From a virus (Duplodnaviria; Caudoviricetes): a stretch of DNA of 64,000 bases. Position 1 is the stretch's first letter. Each line of letters opens with the position of its first letter. The position numbers and the translations under genes were made by a program. The notes beneath the pieces were generated by a model. It saw nothing but the letters and a program-made list of their open reading frames with translations. It had not been told where the DNA came from and searched no databases. Positions 2,950-42,619 of this stretch are shown here, one piece after another. The stretch lies in the IMG/VR virus record IMGVR_UViG_3300032226_000829, one strand, 5' to 3'.

Positions 2950-3786
2950 ATGGATCCATACAAAGTTTTAGGTGTTGATCGCAACATCAACGAAAACGAT
3001 TTGAAAAAAGCCTACAAGAGCAAGGCCATGAAACATCATCCTGACAGAGGTGGTGATGAAAACAAATTTAAAGAACTAAACGAAGCCTACGACATACTGA
3101 AAGATCCACAAAAAAAAGCTGCCTATGACAGATACGGCACTGCAGATCCCAATCAAATGAATTCACAAAATTTTAATTTTAATGGTGATATCAATGATGT
3201 GTTCAACACATTCTTTGGTGGTGGTTTCAATAGAGCAAACAGTGCGAGACACAGACCTCGCAACGCCGACATAAACATAGAAGCCACATTGGATTTAGTA
3301 GATGTGCAAAATGGAAAATCCTTAATTGCCAGTTATAGATTACCCAACGGTCGACAGGAGAGTGTGAACATTGACATTCCGCCAGGAGTGGAACACAACA
3401 ACATGATCAAATTTAATGGTTTGGGTTCTGATTCAGTGAGCAATGCTCCCAGAGGAGATTTGATTGTGAGAGTAAAAATTCTAAGACATAAAACATGGGA
3501 AAGAGATGGCCCTCATCTACTCACAAGAATAAAAGTCAATATATTGGATTTGATATTGGGCACAAAGGAAGAAATACACACACTGTCTGGCAAGAACCTT
3601 TCAATCAGCATACCCAAAGGCACTCAGAACGGCACAGTGTTCAATGTCACAGGAGAAGGATTGCCCAATGTGCATAATCCTAGACAGAAAGGCAACATCT
3701 ATGTCACAGTGCAGGCAGATACGCCACGAGTGGATGACGCAGAATTATTACAAAAAATAAAAAATTTAAAAGATGAACTTAATTAA
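2950..3786 (+). CDS. dnaJ: DnaJ-class co-chaperone (type II/CbpA-like, no Zn finger)
   Basis: J domain with HPD (KHHPDRGG), G/F-rich linker, C-terminal substrate-binding domain (GDLIVRV, GEGLP). Confidence 0.9.
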   Translation: MDPYKVLGVDRNINENDLKKAYKSKAMKHHPDRGGDENKFKELNEAYDILKDPQKKAAYDRYGTADPNQMNSQNFNFNGDINDVFNTFFGGGFNRANSARHRPRNADINIEATLDLVDVQNGKSLIASYRLPNGRQESVNIDIPPGVEHNNMIKFNGLGSDSVSNAPRGDLIVRVKILRHKTWERDGPHLLTRIKVNILDLILGTKEEIHTLSGKNLSISIPKGTQNGTVFNVTGEGLPNVHNPRQKGNIYVTVQADTPRVDDAELLQKIKNLKDELN

Positions 3787-4267
3787 ATATCCTGATCAGA
3801 GACTGCAACAGACTGTAAAAGATTTTGATTTCAATTCTTTGGATGCTAAAAAAATAGAGCATGAGATGATTCAAACCATGCAAACAGAAATGGGCATTGG
3901 TCTGTCTGCCAATCAGGTTGGATTGGATGCCAAAATATTTGTGATGCAACCACACAGTGTGCTTGGAAAAACCCAACCATTTGCAGTGATAAATCCTGTG
4001 ATACAGGAAGCTTCCACAGATTTGGTTCTGATGGAAGAAGGCTGTTTGAGCTTTCCAAAATTATATCTTAAAATACTCAGACCAAACACCATAGTGGTTA
4101 AATATATTGACAGTGATCAAAAAGAATGTATAATAAAATTAGATAGAATAAATGCTAGAATTTTTTTACATGAATTTGATCATTTGTACGGTATCAACTT
4201 TATCGACAGAGTCAGCAAGTTAAAATTAGATATGGCCCTTAAGAAACAACAGAGATTGCTAAAATAA
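3773..4267 (+). CDS. def: Peptide deformylase
   Basis: All three PDF motifs: GIGLSANQVG, EGCLS, HEFDHLYG. Confidence 0.95.
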   Translation: MNLIKYPDQRLQQTVKDFDFNSLDAKKIEHEMIQTMQTEMGIGLSANQVGLDAKIFVMQPHSVLGKTQPFAVINPVIQEASTDLVLMEEGCLSFPKLYLKILRPNTIVVKYIDSDQKECIIKLDRINARIFLHEFDHLYGINFIDRVSKLKLDMALKKQQRLLK

Positions 4268-4268
4268 T

Positions 4269-6527
4269 ATGGTAGAACCCAGCGACGAACTACAACGCAT
4301 ATTTGACAAAGCAGTAGAAAATGCTGCCAAACTCAAACATGAATACATCACAGTGGAACATCTGTTGTTCTCCATGCTGTGCTATGATAAATTTGTGAAA
4401 AATTTGTCTGACTTTGGCGCAGATGCTGAATCAATCAAAAAAAATCTTGAAAAATATCTTAAGGACAATCTAAAAGAGATTGAACTGTTGGAAGTGCCTG
4501 CAAAATTCAAACCCAAAAAGACTGTGGCTGTGGAGCGAGTACTCAACAGAGCATTCACACAGGTGTTGTTCAGTGGTCGTCAACAGATTGAACTGACTGA
4601 TGTGTTTTTGAGCATGATGAGTGAAAAGAAGAGCTGGAGTTATTATTACATTGCCAAAAGCAACATCAGCAAAGACAAATTTGCTGATTTTTTAAACAGT
4701 GAATTAGAAACTGATTATGAAGCAGAAGAAAACAGTTCTGCCACTCAAAGAGCATTGAATCTATACACTACAAATTTGAATTCGGAAGCAAAAAAAGAAA
4801 AAATAGATCCCGTGATAGGTCGACATGCTGAGTTGGATCAAATTTCATTGGCTTTGGGTCGTAGAATGAAAAACAATGTGATATTAGTGGGTGATCCAGG
4901 AGTGGGTAAAACTGCCATAGCAGAAGGATTGGCATTGAACATTGTGACCAATAAGGTTCCAGACTTTTTAAAAGAGTATCAGGTGTATAATTTAGACATT
5001 GGTGCCATGTTGGCTGGTAGCAAATACAGAGGAGATTTTGAAGAAAGATTCAAAATGGTGTTGCAAGCACTAAAGAAAAAAGGCAAAACCATTGTGTTCA
5101 TAGACGAAGCACACAATATCAGCGGAGCAGGAGCAGGTGGTGGAGACAAAGGATCCAATGATTTAGCAAATTTATTAAAACCAGTGCTGACCAAAGGCAC
5201 ACTAAAAGTTGTGGCCAGTACCACTTGGGAAGAATACAGAAAATACTTTGAAAAAGATCGTGCTCTTATGAGAAGATTCCAAAGAATCACTGTGGATGAG
5301 CCCAGTCAATCAGTGGCCATAGACATATTGAAAGGTCTTAAAAAATATTATGAAAATTATCACAAAGCTGAAATCACAGATGCAGCCATTGAAGCAGCAG
5401 TAAAATTAAGTTGCAAATATCAAACTGATAAGAAATTACCTGACAAGGCCATTGATTTAATAGATCTATCTGGCAGTAGATTCAATATCAGTCCCAAAGA
5501 AAATCGTAAGATTGATGTGGCTGAAGTAGAATTTGAATTAAGTAAACTGATCACCATGCCTGTGGAAAACATTCAACAGAGAGAGAACAGCAACTTGGTA
5601 CATCTTGAAAAAAATTTAAAATCTGAAGTGTACGATCAGGATGAAGCTATTGACAATATTGTGGACAAAGTGTTCATTGCTCAAGCAGGATTGAAAGCAG
5701 AAAATAAACCCATAGGTTCATTTATATTCATGGGACCAACTGGATGTGGTAAAACAGAGACAGCCAAGCAACTCAGCAAACATTTGGGAGTAAAATTGAT
5801 AAGATTTGACATGAGTGAATATCAAGAAAAACACAGTATCAGCAAACTGATTGGATCCCCTCCAGGTTATGTGGGCTATGAAGAAAATGCTGGATCATTG
5901 ATTACAAAATTACAAGAATCACCCAACTGTGTGTTACTGTTGGATGAAATAGAAAAAGCACATCCTGATATTTCACAAATATTGCTTCAGATTATGGATG
6001 AAGGCACAGTGACTGGCAGCAACGGCAAAGTGGCTGACTGCAGGAACATTATGTTGATATTAACCACCAATCTTGGTGCTGAACAGGCAGAAAAAGGCAG
6101 TATAGGTTTTGCTCAGTACATGGATGAAGCATATTCTGACACAGCATTAAAAAAATTCTTCACGCCTGAATTTAGAAACAGATTGGATGCTGTGGTCACA
6201 TTCAAAAAATTAGGCAAACCTACCATGATCAAAATTGTGGGCAAATTCTTGACCGAATTAAAAAAATTCTTAACTGAAAAAAATATTCAAGTAACAGTGT
6301 CTGATGAAGCCATTGATTATCTTGTGGACAAAGGATTTGATCCTAAAATGGGTGCTAGACCCATGCAGAGAACCATTGACAGAGAAATTAAAAAACCATT
6401 GTCAAGAGAACTGCTGTTTGGTGCTTTAAAAAAGGGTGGAAAACTTGTGATCAATGCCAAAGACAATAAAATAGTATTAGAAGTGTCGAATTCGTCGCAG
6501 ACCATAGAAATCGCCACAAACATCTAA
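4269..6527 (+). CDS. clpA: ClpA-type ATP-dependent unfoldase (752 aa)
   Basis: Clp N-domain, two AAA+ modules ([14 protein letters not shown]; [15 protein letters not shown]), GYVGYE pore loop, IGF ClpP-docking loop; no ClpB middle domain. Confidence 0.9.
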
Positions 6528-6552: not shown

Positions 6553-6915
6553 ATGCCAGCATACAGCGAAACAATATTAACAGCACAAAACCATCCCAAT
6601 GACAGCACATCCACCACTGTCACAGGACAGCAATACAAAGGCGACGGATATTATGGTCGCAGTGATGGATTTCACACAGTGCAGTTGACTGTGACTGATT
6701 TTGTGGGTACCATAGTGATACAAGCCTCATTGGCCACTGAACCCACTGCCACAGATTGGTTTGATGTCACAGGCACTGCACACACCAGCACCAACAATGC
6801 TCATGCAAATGCTGATGGTAGTTTTTTTTATAATTTTACCGGTAATTTTGTGTGGATCAGAGCCAAAGTGGTGTACACAGCAGGCGATATAGCATCAATC
6901 AAACTGAATCACTAA
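6553..6915 (+). CDS. Hypothetical beta-rich protein (120 aa), possibly structural
   Basis: ORF behind a late-promoter motif; Thr/Gly-rich. Confidence 0.7.
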   Translation: MPAYSETILTAQNHPNDSTSTTVTGQQYKGDGYYGRSDGFHTVQLTVTDFVGTIVIQASLATEPTATDWFDVTGTAHTSTNNAHANADGSFFYNFTGNFVWIRAKVVYTAGDIASIKLNH

Positions 6916-6916
6916 T

Positions 6917-7504
6917 ATGCAACATTTTTTCAGCATCATAGGCAAAGACATCAATCCAGAATCATTGTTGAACACAGCAATGAGCGAGAGCGCTATTGGA
7001 TTGTTGGAAGACCAAACCACATATGAGATTTTTGAGGATGAAGATGACAATCAAGTATTGCGAGTGGAACTGCACAGATCATTGGATTCGACTGAAGCAG
7101 ATGAATTGGCAGAAAGTTTAAACGAAAAACTGAAAGCCATGGGATTGAATGAATTTGACATTGAAATCAGCACTGACGAAACATTGGATGAAGAAACACT
7201 GGAAGGTGACGATTTTCATTCAGCCTATGATGTGATGTGGTTCAATGAAGATGAAAATTTAGATGAAGCAGAATACAGAGGACGCAAAGTGCCTTTGGGT
7301 AAACCCATGCGTGGTGATCGAAAAAAATTTAAAGTGTATGTGCGAAAACCCAACGGCAATGTGGTCAAAGTGAACTTTGGTGATCCCAACATGAGAATTA
7401 GAAAATCCAATCCAGCAAGACGTAGAAGTTTTAGAGCAAGACACAACTGTGCTAACCCAGGTCCAAGAACAAAGGCCCGTTATTGGAGTTGTCGCAAATG
7501 GTAA
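6917..7504 (+). CDS. Hypothetical protein with very acidic N-domain and basic Cys/His C-terminal module
   Basis: Glu/Asp-rich first 115 aa, then LDE|AEYRGRK...SFRARHNC...YWSCRKW. Confidence 0.75.
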   Translation: MQHFFSIIGKDINPESLLNTAMSESAIGLLEDQTTYEIFEDEDDNQVLRVELHRSLDSTEADELAESLNEKLKAMGLNEFDIEISTDETLDEETLEGDDFHSAYDVMWFNEDENLDEAEYRGRKVPLGKPMRGDRKKFKVYVRKPNGNVVKVNFGDPNMRIRKSNPARRRSFRARHNCANPGPRTKARYWSCRKW

Positions 7505-7968: not shown

Positions 7969-8295
7969 ATGGTCAAGATGAAAGATTTCACAGCAATTAC
8001 CAGAGACAATATGGGATATGATGTGGTAGAGGACATATATCAATTCATGTTGAATGACAGTGTTTTTTTTAGGAAACATTTCTTTCCAGTGGCCAAACAA
8101 GTCACAGACAATCATATGATTGAAAAAGATGTCAACATGTGGAGCAATTGTGTGGAAAATGCCATCCAAGAATATTTTAAAAAATTTAAAATCAAAGCCA
8201 AACCAGAAAAAATAATCAATGCAGATGATCGCGTGAATCTTGTGGGCAAGATTACCAAAGGGTTGGCACAACATCCGGTCAAGAATGCACAATGA
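7969..8295 (+). CDS. Hypothetical protein (108 aa)
   Basis: ORF coupled to neighbours. Confidence 0.7.
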   Translation: MVKMKDFTAITRDNMGYDVVEDIYQFMLNDSVFFRKHFFPVAKQVTDNHMIEKDVNMWSNCVENAIQEYFKKFKIKAKPEKIINADDRVNLVGKITKGLAQHPVKNAQ

Positions 8296-8858
8296 GACTC
8301 ATAGAAATAAGTCAGCCAGCGCCTAAAATTGCCGCATTTGCTTACGGCAGAATGAATCCACCCACCACAGGTCATAAAAAATTAGTGGATACCATTGCGT
8401 CTCAGCCAGGAGATCATTTTTTATTTTTAACACACACTCAAGATGCCAAAACAAATCCTTTGAGTTTTGAAGACAAAGTGCTGTATGCTCAAAAAATGTT
8501 CCCCACAGTCACAGTGGGAGATGCAGGAGTTAAAACCATCATTGATGCCATGAAGAAATTACAAGGCATGGGCTACCGAGATATCATATATGTGGCAGGT
8601 TCAGACAGAGTACAACAATTTGATCAATTGCTGAGCAAATACAATGGCAAAGATTATCAGTTTGACAGTATTAGAACTGTGAATGCTGGCATGAGAGATC
8701 CAGATGCCGAAGGTGCTGCAGGTGTGAGTGCCAGCAAAGCCCGTGAATATGCTGTGCAAGGTGCTAGACGCAGCTTTTTAAGCACCATTCCCGCAGATGA
8801 AAAAATTGGCAACGAGATATATCAAAAAATACGTCAAAACCTAAAGCAAACAGCATAA
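8292..8858 (+). CDS. Cytidylyltransferase-like (HIGH-family) nucleotidyltransferase
   Basis: YGRMNPPTTGH (HIGH-like), VAGSDRV, SASKAR (KMSKS-like); N-terminus MRLIEI. Confidence 0.75.
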   Translation: MRLIEISQPAPKIAAFAYGRMNPPTTGHKKLVDTIASQPGDHFLFLTHTQDAKTNPLSFEDKVLYAQKMFPTVTVGDAGVKTIIDAMKKLQGMGYRDIIYVAGSDRVQQFDQLLSKYNGKDYQFDSIRTVNAGMRDPDAEGAAGVSASKAREYAVQGARRSFLSTIPADEKIGNEIYQKIRQNLKQTA

Positions 8859-8861
8859 ATA
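8856..8861 (+). promoter_or_regulatory. T4-type late promoter core
   Basis: TAAATA overlapping the stop codon, 4 nt, ATG 8866. Confidence 0.55.
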
Positions 8862-8865
8862 TTGT

Positions 8866-9084
8866 ATGAACGAGATTGATAAATTAAAAAAACTGGCAGG
8901 CATAGACACTCTTTCACACACAATGCCATCAGTGGAAAATATCAGTCACACAGCACAGGCATTAAAAGACAAAGAAAAAAAATTAGGCTTGAAACCAGGT
9001 GATCCAGATTGGTTCAAACTGTGGTTCAGTCTGCCACACATGACTGGTTCAGTAGACAGTAAATTTAGAGGAAGAAAGAAATGA
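8866..9084 (+). CDS. Hypothetical protein (72 aa)
   Basis: MNEIDKLKKLAGI N-terminus; behind a late motif. Confidence 0.7.
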   Translation: MNEIDKLKKLAGIDTLSHTMPSVENISHTAQALKDKEKKLGLKPGDPDWFKLWFSLPHMTGSVDSKFRGRKK

Positions 9085-10196
9085 AGCTAAGACACATCAT
9101 CAACGAAATGGGTTCTAGAATGCCATCATCTATGGTAAAAACTAAATCTAAACTGGACATGATGAATCCAGATGAGATTAGAGCGTTCTTTAAAAATAGA
9201 GAAGATTTTGCAGCACAACACAGAGGCGGAAAGATAGCACCAGGATTTTCAGCCAAAGAATTAGCACAGAGACAGGAGTTCAGCTATGGCAGAGAATTTG
9301 CCAAAGGTCGTCCTTACTCTAAACATTTTGAAAGCACAGAATTAGACGAAGGTTTAAAAGATTGGTTACAAAAAATGGCTGTGGCTGGAATTATTGTGGG
9401 CAGTGTGGCAGGCATAGGTTCCATCAATAATGCCATCAATAATAATGTGCCAGTGATACAAGCCATGAACAAAGCATTAGATGTTGCTAATCAAAAAGGC
9501 GACAAACAATTGATACAGAACATAAAACAAGATATTGATGTGGCTAAAATAAGTTTGGATTCAGGCAAAGATTTGAATACTGTAAAGCAATTACAAGATA
9601 GATATGCAAAATTTATGCCAGCTGATTATAAACCTTCTACTCCTGCTCCTAAATTTAAAGAAGCAGAACAGAACATTGCATATGATCCTACAAATAACAA
9701 ATACGAACATCCTGAATATATTGTATTCTATGCAAAAAGTCGTTCTCACAAAATGAAAGGCGAATATTTTGATTCAAAAGAAGAAGCAGAAAAATTTAGA
9801 GATCAATTGATAGCACAAAAATTTAAAATTGTAGATCTTACACCTTATATGGATCACGTAAATGCTTTAACAAGAAGAAATCGACCATCTAATCCTAAGA
9901 CAGTGGGCGAAGAAGTGGCTAAAACAGACACACTGACCATAGACATACCTATGTTTATTAGATTGATGGAATATGCCAGAGAAGATGCCAAGACTGATAT
10001 GGATCTACACAATGTTACCACAAATTTATTAAAGATCAAAGACAAAACTATCAGCATGGCTGATTATGATCAAGTGGTTCAGTCCACAGATGTTGACACT
10101 GCTGACGAAAGTTTCAAAGATAAAATTGCTAAAAAAATTGTTCAACCCATAAAAGATTACAACAAAGATAAAGAGCAAGAACCAAAAAAATCTTAA
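9081..10196 (+). CDS. Modular putative internal head protein (371 aa)
   Basis: MKLRHIINE N-terminus; several sequence blocks separated by Glu-ending linkers. Confidence 0.7.
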   Translation: MKLRHIINEMGSRMPSSMVKTKSKLDMMNPDEIRAFFKNREDFAAQHRGGKIAPGFSAKELAQRQEFSYGREFAKGRPYSKHFESTELDEGLKDWLQKMAVAGIIVGSVAGIGSINNAINNNVPVIQAMNKALDVANQKGDKQLIQNIKQDIDVAKISLDSGKDLNTVKQLQDRYAKFMPADYKPSTPAPKFKEAEQNIAYDPTNNKYEHPEYIVFYAKSRSHKMKGEYFDSKEEAEKFRDQLIAQKFKIVDLTPYMDHVNALTRRNRPSNPKTVGEEVAKTDTLTIDIPMFIRLMEYAREDAKTDMDLHNVTTNLLKIKDKTISMADYDQVVQSTDVDTADESFKDKIAKKIVQPIKDYNKDKEQEPKKS

Positions 10197-10200
10197 TCAT

Positions 10201-10362
10201 ATGATCAAAGAAAAACCATACTGTGTCAACTGCGGTGGGTCAACTCATTGTGGTAAAACTTTCAAAAGAAAAGAGAGCGAAACTGTCAATAACAAAGTCA
10301 CACGTGAATGGACCATAGAAGTATGCCGCAATTGTTGTTGTTCAAAATGTGACAAAGAGTAA
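10201..10362 (+). CDS. Small Cys-rich putative Zn-binding protein (53 aa), not in the ORF track
   Basis: Hand translation MIKEKPYCVNCGGSTHCGKTFKRKESETVNNKVTREWTIEVCRNCCCSKCDKE; fills the gap exactly, stop overlaps the next ATG (taATG). Confidence 0.8.
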   Translation: MIKEKPYCVNCGGSTHCGKTFKRKESETVNNKVTREWTIEVCRNCCCSKCDKE

Positions 10363-11081
10363 TGAAAATAGCCGAAATCACACATACCAAAATAACACTT
10401 GATTTGCACAACGAAAAGTTGTATAATAATACTTGCATGACAGAACAAAATCAAGTGAGACCCACTGTGTATTTGGACATGGATGGTGTGATTGCTGACT
10501 TTTTTGGTGGAGTGGAGAAATTGTACGGTGTGGATCACTGGAAACAATTGACTTCTGACAAAACCAAAGATCTCAAACAAGAAGTGATAGACAGAATAGC
10601 CGGCACAGATTTCTTTGCTAATCTGCCTAAATTTCCCACAACTGACACACTGATTGAAATGATTAAAAAATTCACTGGTGGAAAATACAGCATACTAACA
10701 TCTCCATTGAGAGGTGACACTGAAAACAGTGGATATTACAAAAAGATTTGGATAGGTAAAAACATAGTCAAGCCTGATGAGATTATTGTTACAGGCAGCA
10801 AAGAAGGTTGGGCCACAAAGAATGGTGTGAGCAACATATTGATTGACGATAGACCTATCAATATTGAAAAGTGGCGTGCCAAAGGTGGATATGGCATACT
10901 GTATCAAGCCAACAAAGATCCATTGAGCAAAGTCACACAAGCATTTGAAAATTATCATAAAAAACAATTGGAACCTGTGGAAGATGCAGCAGGCGTGGGC
11001 ATCATTACCAAACAAAATACCACTCGAGATGTCAAACCAGGTGAGATCCGCAGACAAGCAAAAAAATTAAAACTGGTTTAA
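10362..11081 (+). CDS. HAD-family 5'(3')-deoxyribonucleotidase-like protein with N- and C-terminal extensions
   Basis: YLDMDGVIADF (DxDxV), ILTSP, K, LIDDRPINIEKW; in-frame second ATG at 10437. Confidence 0.8.
   Translation: MKIAEITHTKITLDLHNEKLYNNTCMTEQNQVRPTVYLDMDGVIADFFGGVEKLYGVDHWKQLTSDKTKDLKQEVIDRIAGTDFFANLPKFPTTDTLIEMIKKFTGGKYSILTSPLRGDTENSGYYKKIWIGKNIVKPDEIIVTGSKEGWATKNGVSNILIDDRPINIEKWRAKGGYGILYQANKDPLSKVTQAFENYHKKQLEPVEDAAGVGIITKQNTTRDVKPGEIRRQAKKLKLV
10399..10427 (+). promoter_or_regulatory. sigma70-type promoter inside the nucleotidase ORF
   Basis: TTGATT (10399-10404), 17 nt, TATAAT (10422-10427); preceded by cac as at 2912 and 19946; in-frame ATG 10 nt downstream. Confidence 0.6.
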
Positions 11082-11085
11082 TACC

Positions 11086-11289
11086 ATGAAGATTCGTGAA
11101 GTAACAGAAAATTTTGCAGATGGCAAAGGTCCAGGCAAACCAGGTGACAGCAAGCGAGCAGGCATACCCAAAGGTGCTACCATCACACAATTAAAGAAGA
11201 TACGCAGTTCTAAAACAGCATCCGCACGCAAGAAACAACTGGCACACTGGCAGATAAACATGCGCCAAGGTCGCAAACGCAATAAATAA
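11086..11289 (+). CDS. Small basic putative internal head protein (67 aa)
   Basis: MKIREVTE N-terminus, Lys/Arg-rich body. Confidence 0.75.
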   Translation: MKIREVTENFADGKGPGKPGDSKRAGIPKGATITQLKKIRSSKTASARKKQLAHWQINMRQGRKRNK

Positions 11290-11306
11290 TAGTGTAAAAC
11301 ACTATT
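11283..11306 (+). promoter_or_regulatory. Late promoter core plus 8-bp hairpin abutting ATG 11307
   Basis: TAAATA 11283-11288; AATAGTGT-aaa-ACACTATT perfect inverted repeat 11288-11306. Confidence 0.55.
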
Positions 11307-11468
11307 ATGAAACTCAAAGAAATCACTCAAGGACTGCAAGAAAAACAGGATGCCTGCTATCGTAAGGTCAAATCCAGATACAAAGTGTGGCCCAGTGCCT
11401 ATGCATCAGGTGCATTGGTTCAGTGTCGTAAAAAAGGTGCAGCCAACTGGGGCAACAAGAGCAAATGA
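11307..11468 (+). CDS. Small basic putative internal head protein (53 aa), not in the ORF track
   Basis: Hand translation MKLKEITQGLQEKQDACYRKVKSRYKVWPSAYASGALVQCRKKGAANWGNKSK; ATGA overlap with the next gene; family N-terminal motif. Confidence 0.85.
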   Translation: MKLKEITQGLQEKQDACYRKVKSRYKVWPSAYASGALVQCRKKGAANWGNKSK

Positions 11469-11809
11469 AATATAGAGAGATTTTAGAAAAATGCTGGCAA
11501 GGTTATGTGCAGCGTGGCATGAAACCCAAAGGTGATAGAATGGTACCCAACTGTGTGCCCGTGAAGGAAATGGAAGAAGATTTAAAAAAATGGTTCCGTC
11601 AGAAGTGGGTGAGATTTGGTCCAGACGGCAAAATCAAAGGTGATTGTGCCAGAGGTTCTAGTAAAGAAGGCAAGCCCAAATGTTTGCCACAAGCCAAAGC
11701 ACACGCACTGGGTAAAAAAGGTCGTGCCACAGCAGCAGCAAGAAAAAGACGCGAGGATCCCAATCCAGAACGTCGTGGCTCTGCCAAGAATGTGAAGACA
11801 AAAAAATGA
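11465..11809 (+). CDS. Basic two-module putative internal head protein (114 aa)
   Basis: MKYREILE, then CWQGY...VPNCVP module, then a KWFRQKWV...KPKCLP module. Confidence 0.75.
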   Translation: MKYREILEKCWQGYVQRGMKPKGDRMVPNCVPVKEMEEDLKKWFRQKWVRFGPDGKIKGDCARGSSKEGKPKCLPQAKAHALGKKGRATAAARKRREDPNPERRGSAKNVKTKK

Positions 11810-11997
11810 AGATACGTGAAATAGTAGAATCCCGAGCAGATTATCATTACGGCATTGATCCAGCACAGTTGAGCTACACATTCAAAGTGGGCGATATATA
11901 CGGTCCAAAAAATCTCAAAGTGCCACACGCAAGGCTTTACAAAGGTGGCAAAGCAGTGAAAAAGCTGGGCATCACTGTGCCCAAAGTTCACAAATAA
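11806..11997 (+). CDS. Small putative internal head protein (63 aa)
   Basis: MKIREIVE N-terminus. Confidence 0.75.
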   Translation: MKIREIVESRADYHYGIDPAQLSYTFKVGDIYGPKNLKVPHARLYKGGKAVKKLGITVPKVHK

Positions 11998-12011
11998 TCC
12001 CAAACACCACA

Positions 12012-12017
12012 TAAATA
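12012..12017 (+). promoter_or_regulatory. T4-type late promoter core
   Basis: TAAATA in the gap, followed by AGG and ATG 12036. Confidence 0.5.
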
Positions 12018-12035
12018 CAGCATAGGCGAAACACA

Positions 12036-12236
12036 ATGAAAATAAGAGACATCATAAGAGAAGTGGCTTCTGTGGGATCAACGTCTGCGGGCAATATTGC
12101 CAGCATAGCCAATCCACAAGTGACCAATCCTTATGCTTACAAAAGTGCCAAAGCCAAACCCAAAAAACAAAAACCCACTGATAATGCACTGGACATGAAA
12201 AACGTCAGCATATTCGGCGGCCCATTAAAAAGATAA
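12036..12236 (+). CDS. Small putative internal head protein (66 aa)
   Basis: MKIRDIIRE N-terminus. Confidence 0.75.
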   Translation: MKIRDIIREVASVGSTSAGNIASIANPQVTNPYAYKSAKAKPKKQKPTDNALDMKNVSIFGGPLKR

Positions 12237-12239
12237 ATA
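12234..12239 (+). promoter_or_regulatory. T4-type late promoter core
   Basis: TAAATA overlapping the stop, 5 nt, ATG 12245. Confidence 0.55.
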
Positions 12240-12244
12240 CTCAT

Positions 12245-12622
12245 ATGAAATACAAACAGATCAAAGAAGGTTTAGGAGATGCAGCTCACAAAGCAGAGTT
12301 GGATCACGAAGTTCAAATGGCTCGTGCTGACTTATACAAGTTGGCCAAATACAGCATCAAACTGCATGAGTTATTAAAGAACGTTTCCGAAGCAGAAGGT
12401 CTGGAAGGTTGGGTTCAAGCCAAGATTACTAAAGCATCTGATTACATCAGTTCTGTGTATCATTACATGGATTATGATGAAAAATTTGATCAAGCTGAAA
12501 TTGACAGCATACCTGTGCAAGACATTGCGAAACAATCCGACGGCAAAATAGAAACCTACGAAGAGATTCTTTTTAAAATCTTAAATAAAAAAGTCACAGA
12601 GAAGAAAAATAACAAAAAATAA
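12245..12622 (+). CDS. Putative internal head protein (125 aa)
   Basis: MKYKQIKE N-terminus; helical DHEVQMAR...LEGWVQAKITKA block. Confidence 0.75.
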   Translation: MKYKQIKEGLGDAAHKAELDHEVQMARADLYKLAKYSIKLHELLKNVSEAEGLEGWVQAKITKASDYISSVYHYMDYDEKFDQAEIDSIPVQDIAKQSDGKIETYEEILFKILNKKVTEKKNNKK

Positions 12623-12639
12623 AAAATTGGAGTGCTGGA

Positions 12640-13158
12640 ATGAAAATTAATGAAATAGTTTCAGAAGCACCTTTTGTCAAAGCATTAAAAAGTTTCCCTG
12701 CTCAAGCAACCAAAGCTATAAAAAATTTCCCCAATCAAATAAAACAAGGCGCCAAAGACGTTAAACAAACAGTAAAAAACTTTCCAGGAAGTGTTCAAAA
12801 TTATTTGTCAAAAGACGACAATATGTCTAAAATAGCCACTGATATTTCCACCATAGGTGGTGGCCCAGGTCTTAAAGACTATGGAGCTGGTGACAAATCA
12901 TCAGATGCACAATTTCAGGATCTGTTAAATGTGCTACAGGATAAATCCTTGAGCAAAAAAATTGACAAGCAAAAAATTACCACAGCAATGACAAACATGT
13001 ATCAATCAGATAAACAACTTCCCACTGATAGACAGTATTTTATAAATGCAATCAAGCATTTATCCGCAACACATCCAGCGATCACGCCTGATAAAATATA
13101 CAGCGAGTATAAACCAATATTCAAAAGATATCAAATCAATCCTAACGAAATAAAATAA
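12640..13158 (+). CDS. Putative internal head protein (172 aa)
   Basis: MKINEIVSE N-terminus, GGAG SD; three K(S/N)FP repeats. Confidence 0.75.
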   Translation: MKINEIVSEAPFVKALKSFPAQATKAIKNFPNQIKQGAKDVKQTVKNFPGSVQNYLSKDDNMSKIATDISTIGGGPGLKDYGAGDKSSDAQFQDLLNVLQDKSLSKKIDKQKITTAMTNMYQSDKQLPTDRQYFINAIKHLSATHPAITPDKIYSEYKPIFKRYQINPNEIK

Positions 13159-41812: not shown

Positions 41813-42619
41813 ATGATAAGAGGAATTGGTGGCCGACCATATATTGATTTAACTCCACATTTGGATATAGAAGGTTTTAGGAAATTACATCCTGAAATTT
41901 GTCGAGGATTTGCTTTGGCTAGAGAATATGCCAAAGAAGGCACATGGATGTCGCCAGGATTTAATCTACAAGACATGAGTTATCAATTGAATTGGAAACC
42001 AATTTATATGGCTGTGAAAGAATATCTTGCACTGCCCACAGATCACCCTATTAGAAAAAACGGTGATGATTTGTATGCCAATATCAAAGATTACCGCACA
42101 AGAAATCAATTCACACGCTACCTCAAAGCAGTGTTGGGTGCCAAAGATCCATACATCTATTATTTTTTATGGAATGAAGGCGATTGGGATAATAGAAATT
42201 CTGAAAGACATCTCACAGAAGAAAGCAAACATTTTCCTGGATTGGTCACATGGGTTAAAAATCTTGTGGATCAAAACATTATCAGTCAAATAGGCAGAGT
42301 GATATTTTTTCACTGTGAACATGATGGACAACCATTTGAACACAGAGATCTAGATGGCAAACTGGGTGATCAACAAGGGTACAGTGATCATCGCAATGAG
42401 TTCATACACATACGTTATAACACCAAAAGAGGATTTTATATCTGGGATCCTGAAACAAAAAACAAAACCTACATCAATGCCAATGCAGCTTTCTGGAACG
42501 ATCAAGACTGGCATGGTGGAGAAATCAATCGTGAACAAGAGTATGGATTGAGAATTGACTGTGTGTTCACCGATGCATTTAGAAAAAAATTAGGCATCGA
42601 TCATTTAAAAAATTATTAA
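41813..42619 (+). CDS. 2OG-Fe(II)-type (DSBH) oxygenase-like protein
   Basis: HRD...WHG...RID; paralog of 48199. Confidence 0.65.
   Translation: MIRGIGGRPYIDLTPHLDIEGFRKLHPEICRGFALAREYAKEGTWMSPGFNLQDMSYQLNWKPIYMAVKEYLALPTDHPIRKNGDDLYANIKDYRTRNQFTRYLKAVLGAKDPYIYYFLWNEGDWDNRNSERHLTEESKHFPGLVTWVKNLVDQNIISQIGRVIFFHCEHDGQPFEHRDLDGKLGDQQGYSDHRNEFIHIRYNTKRGFYIWDPETKNKTYINANAAFWNDQDWHGGEINREQEYGLRIDCVFTDAFRKKLGIDHLKNY

Follow-up and report, generated by a model that had tools for sequence, protein, structure and literature searches.

Why should ten genes with otherwise unrelated products begin with the same few residues? This question is raised by a 64,000-nucleotide stretch of virus DNA (IMG/VR record IMGVR_UViG_3300032226_000829; Duplodnaviria, Caudoviricetes), called the window in the following, in which open reading frames (ORFs) on the plus strand starting at 8292, 9081, 10362, 11086, 11307, 11465, 11806, 12036, 12245, and 12640 share an N-terminal leader with the common start M-[K/R]-[I/L/Y]-x-[E/D/Q/H]-[I/V]. 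The ten genes form a tightly packed block of 4.9 kb, in which five starts overlap the preceding stop codon. An earlier note on this DNA had pointed out these genes, and all ORFs, starts, and N-termini were found as it gave them. With a probability of roughly 60%, and by analogy with phage T4, we read the block as a variable 'internal protein' cargo locus whose products would carry a T4-type capsid-targeting leader that is clipped off. Three relatives were assembled from IMG/VR as controls, namely G2r (116 kb), G3r (114 kb), and G006 (IMGVR_UViG_3300042907_001080; 281,658 bp, estimated to be 80% complete). The genes of the block are as follows:

8292–8858, plus strand: 188-aa adenylyltransferase (PPAT/NadD-like, HIGH-motif superfamily), leader MRLIEISQ; phrog_3041/395 'cytidyltransferase'
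8866–9084, plus strand: basic protein of 72 aa starting MNEIDKL, TAAATA 4 nt upstream; the G006 homologue starts MSELDEL
9081–10196, plus strand: protein of 371 aa, leader MKLRHIINE, no Pfam or PHROG match; orthologues in L008, L010, and L013
10201–10362, plus strand: Cys-rich (zinc-ribbon-like) ORF of 53 aa inside the cluster, without leader and not a member
10362–11081, plus strand: NT5C-type 5'(3')-deoxyribonucleotidase (HAD fold), leader MKIAEITH; PF06941 at residues 33–183, phrog_2643
11086–11289, plus strand: very basic peptide of 67 aa (isoelectric point, pI, 11.7), leader MKIREVTE; leader of the G006 homologue MRASEFIVE
11307–11468, plus strand: DUF5872-like Cys module, 53 aa, leader MKLKEITQGLQE; phrog_727/3477
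11465–11809, plus strand: two basic modules (CWxGY...NCV and WF..KWV..KPKC..RREDPN), 114 aa, leader MKYREILE; phrog_727
11806–11997, plus strand: basic protein, 63 aa, leader MKIREIVE; orthologues in many IMG/VR contigs
12036–12236, plus strand: basic 'TSAGNIA' peptide, 66 aa, leader MKIRDIIRE, TAAATA 18 nt upstream
12245–12622, plus strand: helical module (DHEV..WVQAKIT), 125 aa, leader MKYKQIKE, TAAATA 5 nt upstream
12640–13158, plus strand: protein of 172 aa, leader MKINEIVSE, no family match

The leader is sharply confined to this block. A regular expression describing it (M[KR][ILVYFM].[EDQH][ILV]), for which 0.0014 matches per gene are expected from the position frequencies in the window's other 85 genes, matched 10 of the 14 genes between 8292 and 13158 and none of those 85 (Fisher p = 6e-11; binomial about 1e-26). 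In the relatives, matches were likewise restricted to the homologous cluster, with 8 in 5 kb of G2r and 4 in 4 kb of G3r, over a background of one spurious antisense ORF among some 890 ORFs per contig. The triplet [ILV]-x-E occurred within the first 12 residues of all ten leader genes, compared to 8/85 other window genes (p = 4e-9), and a predicted prohead-protease-type site (L/I-x-E) is present inside the leader or where it ends. The consensus of 31 distinct leaders reads M, K (25) or R (5), I (18) or L (9), any residue, E (24), I (23), and I/V/T, with positions 3, 5, and 6 near-invariant and E frequent at position 8 or 9. Behind the leader, from residue 13 to the end, pairwise blastp revealed no similarity among the ten bodies (best E = 0.2), as had been stated before, and the description of many of them as short and very basic also proved right, since nine of ten are basic (pI 8.9–11.7) and five of the short ones have a pI of 9.9–11.7.

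At the nucleotide level, leader codons vary between copies (ATA, ATT, or ATC for Ile, AAA or AAG for Lys, CTC or CTA for Leu), synonymous codons are chosen as elsewhere in the genome, and the A+T content of codons 2–9 is 0.70 in the cluster compared to 0.67 in other genes. DNA repeats were limited to about 20 nt across the start with 71–83% identity, and the DNA repeat comparison of the cluster revealed no conserved sequence upstream of the leader-gene starts. Because the codons differ between copies and the repeats span only about 20 nt, the leader is conserved as protein and not as DNA. A mobile DNA cassette or a promoter repeat at the gene starts was rejected, the repeats being nothing but some 20 nt of coding sequence, as was a family of precursors resembling ribosomally synthesized and post-translationally modified peptides, since the shared part covers only about eight residues and heads enzymes of 188–371 aa.

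The T4 capsid-targeting sequence and the variable T-even ip loci, reportedly described by Mullaney and Black (1996) and by Repoila et al. (1994), have long been known. The earlier note had taken MKTYQEFIAE as the leader of the T4 internal proteins. Read from NC_000866, this is exact for ipII and ipIII, while ipI starts with MKTFKEFTST and alt with MELITELFDE. The first ten residues of IPIII are enough for packaging, with residues 4 and 7 serving targeting and residues 8 and 10 processing, and gp21 cleaves after L/I-x-E (PMC9026906); the tag has also been suggested as a general route of protein loading for T4-like phages (PMC9026906). Among T-even internal proteins, the leader is the sole shared feature, and their genes lie in variable hotspots (PMC3012670, PMC12373910). 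The block resembles the set of IPI, IPII, IPIII, and Alt in that a short leader is the only thing shared by unrelated, mostly basic, variably clustered proteins. The core I3-x-E5-I6 is spaced as Y4-Q5-E6-F7 of T4, the pattern MK-phi-x-E-phi matching MK(T)-Y-Q-E-F, and both leaders show a hydrophobic pair three residues apart, a Glu before its second member, and then a protease-type hydrophobic-x-Glu site. However, MK-I-x-E-I-(V)-x-E has one residue less in front of the core and is aliphatic, whereas MKTYQEFIAE is aromatic. Further differences are that a single 5-kb block holds ten or more tagged genes here, compared to three ip genes in T4, that an adenylyltransferase and a 5'-nucleotidase are among the putative cargo, and that the bearer is an uncultured freshwater jumbo phage, for which packaging and cleavage are predicted.

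Intermediate forms were found in G006. Leaders of its homologous cluster read MRAYEFVTE, MRASEFIVE, MLLNELFEA (on the adenylyltransferase), MRAKDIIP, and MKIREIVES. Elsewhere in this genome, in a block of large late-type genes, a protein of 198 aa without any family match (41968–42564, minus strand, TAAATA 5 nt upstream) starts with MKTFKEYLVE, which is almost the leader of T4 IPI/IPIII. Set beside MKTYQEFIAE, MKTFKEF, and MELITELFDE of T4, these intermediates suggest a link between the window leader and the T4 tag, though 6–9 residues are too short to prove homology. A broader expression for the leader matched 8 of 342 genes in G006, where 1.1 would be expected; all but one of the eight fall into three groups, one of which (two leader genes) is located in the structural-gene region, upstream of the portal gene by about 4 kb and on the same strand as the block for portal, protease, scaffold, and capsid. 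G006 encodes the portal, a protease of the gp21 family (Peptidase_S77), a scaffold-like protein, the major capsid protein, and a late sigma factor of the gp55 type, so that the clade of the window phage also shares this protease family and sigma factor type with T4. Peptidase_S77 was detected in Atu_ph07, Phosso, and Vibrio phage 2.275.O as well, while the closest contigs, G001–G005, which are fragments of 13–32% completeness, gave no match to Peptidase_S77 or Gp23.

Comparison with relatives also characterized the leader as a movable addition. Orthologues of the 9081 product in L008, L010, and L013 retain MKLR[HD]II, though their bodies are only 49–89% identical, and bodies absent from the window sit behind the same leader in L008, L010, L011, and L076. 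The 10362 product consists of the leader MKIAEITH, an extension of 32 aa, the nucleotidase, and a basic C-terminal 'AAGVGIITKQNTT.DV.PGE' module, and this module is a separate gene in L011/G3r (L011 7648–7962), where MKIREIVHR stands directly before it; the two arrangements clearly reflect a fusion or fission event. In G006, three modules are fused in a protein of 358 aa with the single leader MRDLLSKLDAIVSE; in the window they are separate tagged genes, except for that of 6917–7504, which forms the basic C-terminal part of a gene shortly before the block. By these comparisons, there is one tag per polypeptide, whether modules are split or fused.

The leader also appears to be structurally separate. 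In Foldseek, the best matches of the 8292 product were PPAT/NadD (TM score about 0.6), whereas a PDB sequence search was uninformative for both enzymes (8292 and 10362). In its AlphaFold2 model (mean predicted local distance difference test score 84), residues 1–12 are unstructured before the first strand, and the orthologues in GAP32, XbC2, Vibrio phage 2.275.O, and Phosso are leaderless and start directly at this first strand of the fold. Similarly, the NT5C domain of the 10362 product begins only at residue 33. By the model and the alignments, the tag lies outside the protein folds and would act like an address label. Within the adenylyltransferase family it reads MLLNELFEA in G006 and MRLIEISQ in the window, is of the T4 type in a cyanophage, and is missing in the cultured jumbo relatives.

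A second tagged set was identified in L042/L044, with the leaders MKLVEF (on a DUF6267 protein), MKIVEILSE, MRLKEF, MKINELIS, and MKFTQLIKTLTAE; the proteins with the last two match PHROG families of 'virion structural protein'. L042/L044 are candidates for parts of the same genome's lineage, the origin from the same phage being unproven. As a separate observation, phrog_455 (764 aa) resembles the DUF6267 protein (L042 747–1889) in its N-terminal part and the adenylyltransferase (8292–8858) in its C-terminal part. Since phrog_455 spans both, the two are one fused protein in some phages.

Evidence on virion location comes from T4-like cyanophages, in particular Synechococcus phage S-CREM2 (OR473000). 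The 8292 product belongs to the cyanophage 'cytitidyltransferase' family and is homologous to S-CREM2 ORF154 (36% identity, E 3e-26), the C-terminal module of ORF160 is 76% identical to the 11307 product (E 3e-25), and both 11465 modules align to ORF160. ORF154 and ORF160 were detected in purified S-CREM2 virions (PMC10665884, Table 3). Five virion proteins of this phage that were listed as 'non-structural' start in a T4-like manner (MKDFDSFLEE, MKDLHSFLTE, (V)KRFDAFLTE, MKNFSSFLTE, and MQTFSMFFSE). This leader, M-K-x-[F/L]-x-S-F-L-x-E, is carried by ORF6 (S-adenosylmethionine hydrolase), ORF13, ORF14 (kinase), ORF136, and ORF154 (cytidylyltransferase), all of which were found in virions (PMC10665884), though the leader is not mentioned in that paper. 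All four called genes that match an expression for it encode virion proteins (five with the GTG-started kinase), compared to 0/164 non-virion genes (p = 0.003); the expression was written after the positives had been seen, so that the informative part is the absence among non-virion genes. In comparison with the window, the S-CREM2 leader is of the aromatic T4 type, and the small basic modules are fused in one protein instead of forming separate tagged genes.

The same relation was found in further cyanophages. In S-CAM9 and ACG-2014b, long basic proteins whose genes lie between those for the terminase contain the 11307 and 11465 products as modules, the 12245 product is a module of the fused S-CAM9 protein and also part of the fused G006 protein, and the cyanophage proteins P0001 and P0002 contain both 11465 modules in fused form. 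Fused cyanophage proteins composed of these modules are located at:

L001, 3002–5101; L002, 2999–4354; L045, 1111–2004

The junctions before their modules show hydrophobic-x-Glu sites (VQE|KCW, LFE|KCW, and ISE|GKKDACY), which would be compatible with polyprotein cleavage but are statistically untestable alone. As to the modules themselves, basic Cys modules ('DACY..WPSAYASG', DUF5872-like; 'CWxGY..NCV'; 'WF..KWV..KPKC..RREDPN'; 'DHEV..WVQAKIT') are separate genes at 11307–11809 and 12245–12622, and T4-like cyanophages fuse them in varying order in one virion protein (phrog_727/3477).

TAAATA motifs may point to the time of expression. Four had been reported for the cluster; we counted five on the plus strand of the block (8856, 11283, 12012, 12234, and 12582), of which four lie close upstream, 4–18 nt before starts (8866, 11307, 12036, and 12245). 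Across the window the motif is depleted, with 30 sites compared to 55.5 ± 6.8 expected from shuffles. The motif thus placed looks like a late promoter and suggests several of the cargo genes as candidate late genes. TAAATA is often found 3–9 nt before an ATG (e.g., 6542, 8856, 12234, 24745, and 33185), too close for a ribosome-binding site to fit in between. In G006, gaps between TAAATA and ATG cluster at 4–5 nt and 24–33 nt, and many of the genes concerned are large and of structural type.

If the T4 capsid-targeting sequence MKTYQEFIAE has its lineage-specific variant in the tag consensus M-K-[I/L]-x-E-I-[I/V/T]-x-(E), the following course may be proposed. Late in infection, the tag would bind the scaffolding core of the prohead, its conserved hydrophobic pair, spaced by three and with Glu preceding the second member, corresponding to Tyr4 and Phe7 of T4, and the protein would be built into the head. 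A prohead protease of the T4 gp21 type would then remove the tag after [I/L/V]-x-Glu. The mature proteins, mostly small and basic, plus the PPAT/NMNAT-like adenylyltransferase and the 5'-nucleotidase, would stay with the DNA and probably enter the host with it. Core binding, cleavage, head retention, and injection are steps that we infer. We favour capsid targeting because the leader resembles the T4 tag, behaves as an addition, and occurs once per polypeptide, because the clade encodes an S77 protease and a late sigma factor, and because of the TAAATA motifs and the homologues in S-CREM2 virions. The expanded cargo locus with a T4-like capsid tag, as it had been proposed in the earlier note, gains from the add-on nature of the tag, the G006 intermediates, and the S-CREM2 homologues, while the wording 'effectors or DNA-condensing peptides' is conjecture.

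Several points weigh against capsid targeting. The phage and its close relatives are all uncultured and known from sequence alone. The head genes lie outside the window, so that protease, scaffold, and capsid are taken from relatives whose DNA polymerase is 42–66% identical. The leader comprises only 6–9 residues, differs in register from the T4 tag, and is aliphatic, not aromatic. In L010 and L013 (MKLRDIISQE), the sole [ILV]-x-[ED] near the start is L-R-D in the core, and none is found at the leader end. A 5'-nucleotidase would be an unusual cargo, and the 'late promoter' role suggested for TAAATA rests on the motif. Finally, the S-CREM2 detections are based on few peptides (3 and 7) and might reflect contamination of the virion preparation, and the expression used for this phage was, as said, fitted after the fact.

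A different function is conceivable in view of the gene lying 2 kb upstream:

4269–6527, plus strand: double-AAA+ unfoldase of the ClpA/ClpC type, 752 aa, with Clp_N, AAA, AAA_lid_9, AAA_2, and ClpB_D2-small domains

N-terminal signals can be read by ClpA, and the shared N-terminus might be a recognition tag for this unfoldase together with ClpP, serving timed degradation or unfolding and not capsid loading. The Clp_N domain of the double-AAA+ protein would fit, the unfoldase adjoins the leader cluster in G006 too, and ClpP is encoded elsewhere in relatives (G006 273316–273834, and the end of G007). However, the adjacency may just reflect conserved gene order among related phages, the leader matches the T4 capsid tag but no known Clp signal, and tagged genes are also found near head genes, far from the unfoldase. 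Moreover, homologous cargo is stable enough to be present in cyanophage virions (PMC10665884), and S-CREM2 puts a T4-like leader on the same enzyme. Taken together, we regard such a recognition tag as unlikely.

About equally doubtful is the view that the leader is a functionless relic, left when a polyprotein was split or one 5' end was duplicated and the pieces kept a linker and gained Met-Lys. Three bodies are indeed modules of fused cyanophage proteins, the fused junctions are leader-like (TFQQVQE|KCW and YDTLFE|KCW), and the ATGA stop-start overlaps at five genes favour an A-initial codon at position 2. On the other hand, the leader also heads the products of 8292, 9081, 10362, and 12640, which are not modules of that polyprotein, and it persists where the bodies have drifted apart to 49% identity or have been exchanged. 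Among the 31 leaders, positions 3, 5, and 6 hardly vary, which likewise speaks against a relic, since this would decay without a function.

Capsid targeting and the unfoldase, whose pairing with the tagged cluster is conserved, might also be combined. The unfoldase could recognize MK-I-x-E-I and pass the proteins that bear it on to the prohead, or it could remodel them once they have been ejected, which we consider a long shot. If this pairing were true, it would mean an ATP-driven step of protein loading that is unknown in T4, and the adenylyltransferase and nucleotidase would be pre-loaded enzymes acting on host nucleotide pools or signals at injection. The weakest proposal, that the motif merely serves an A-rich unstructured stretch after the AUG of leaderless or coupled genes and encodes a functionless peptide, is in keeping with the TAAATA 4–5 nt before the ATG or the overlap with the previous stop at several genes and with the A/T-rich codons of Lys, Ile, and Glu, but is highly improbable given the A+T content and synonymous codon choice reported above, the absence of the motif from the remaining genes that have TAAATA shortly before the ATG (6553, 24760, and 33194), and the conservation by amino-acid class (Ile/Leu/Tyr at position 3, Glu/Asp/Gln at position 5).

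Returning to capsid targeting, giant phages related to phiKZ, with their propeptide-bearing ejection and inner-body proteins, offer a further comparison. In SPN3US and 201phi2-1, many proteins inside the head are cut after Glu by a gp21-related protease (PMC5694885, PMC10052503). However, cleavage occurs there at S/A-x-E, the propeptides are long and have no short tag in common, and these phages are unrelated to the window phage in their replication or head genes. We found no paper in which T4-type tags are linked with cyanophages or with this clade of jumbo phages. What is distinctive here is the aliphatic, shorter consensus, the concentration of at least ten tagged genes in a single block, the enzymes among the cargo, and the fused-versus-split relation to a cyanophage virion protein.

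Should the tag work as in T4, an abundant clade of uncultured lake phages would deliver a dozen or more proteins, enzymes included, together with its DNA, and the tagged genes would represent a list of candidate first-minute effectors and DNA-packing peptides. For cultured cyanophages, the suggested rule is that T4-like leaders mark the 'non-structural' virion proteins, and their multi-module basic protein would correspond to genes that are separately tagged here. A second, shorter natural tag would also help to load foreign proteins into phage heads.

Upstream of the block, further genes may belong to the same locus:

6553–7504, plus strand: two genes encoding proteins of 120 aa and 195 aa, the first with TAAATA 5 nt upstream, the second with a basic C-terminal module
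7969–8295, plus strand: uncertain extra candidate, whose 108-aa product begins MVKMKDFTAI and shows hydrophobic-x-D-F in register with T4; its G006 homologue starts MLLKEMFS

The 120-aa product matches phrog_14467 'virion structural protein' (E 4e-9), and the basic module of the gene at 6917–7504 is 80% identical to part of the 358-aa protein of G006. Both genes probably belong to the same virion-protein locus as the leader genes, so that the cluster probably extends to them, to 7969 (MVKMKDF), and to 8866, whose MNEIDKL may be a shortened leader and thus an 11th member. Farther upstream, the unfoldase is preceded by DnaJ-like and peptide deformylase-like genes (2950–3786 and 3773–4267). Its PHROG label 'ATP-dependent protease'/'Lon-like protease' was rejected as wrong, the protein being an unfoldase of the ClpA/ClpC type without a protease domain. 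The earlier note had overlooked both this gene next to the cluster and the fact that several bodies are modules fused by cyanophages in one virion protein.

Judged by its genes, the window comes from a freshwater jumbo myophage that is uncultured and a distant relative of T4. The family-B DNA polymerase shows 42–48% identity to its counterparts in Sinorhizobium phage Phosso, Agrobacterium phage Atu_ph07, Xanthomonas phage XbC2, and Cronobacter phage GAP32. Though no near-identical DNA was found among cultured phages, near-identical as well as more distant relatives are present in IMG/VR, the near-identical contigs stemming from lakes (IMG samples 3300027973, 3300027734, and 3300009068). A relative of the 12036 product with 61 aa, starting with MKIREIVES, is widespread and also present in G006. 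Moreover, a protein of 61 aa starting with MKIREIVESATAGATSAGN was near-identical in about 17 contigs from lake metagenomes in IMG/VR (L060–L083), which have a GC content of 41–43%. As far as such contigs indicate, the phage group is widespread and abundant.

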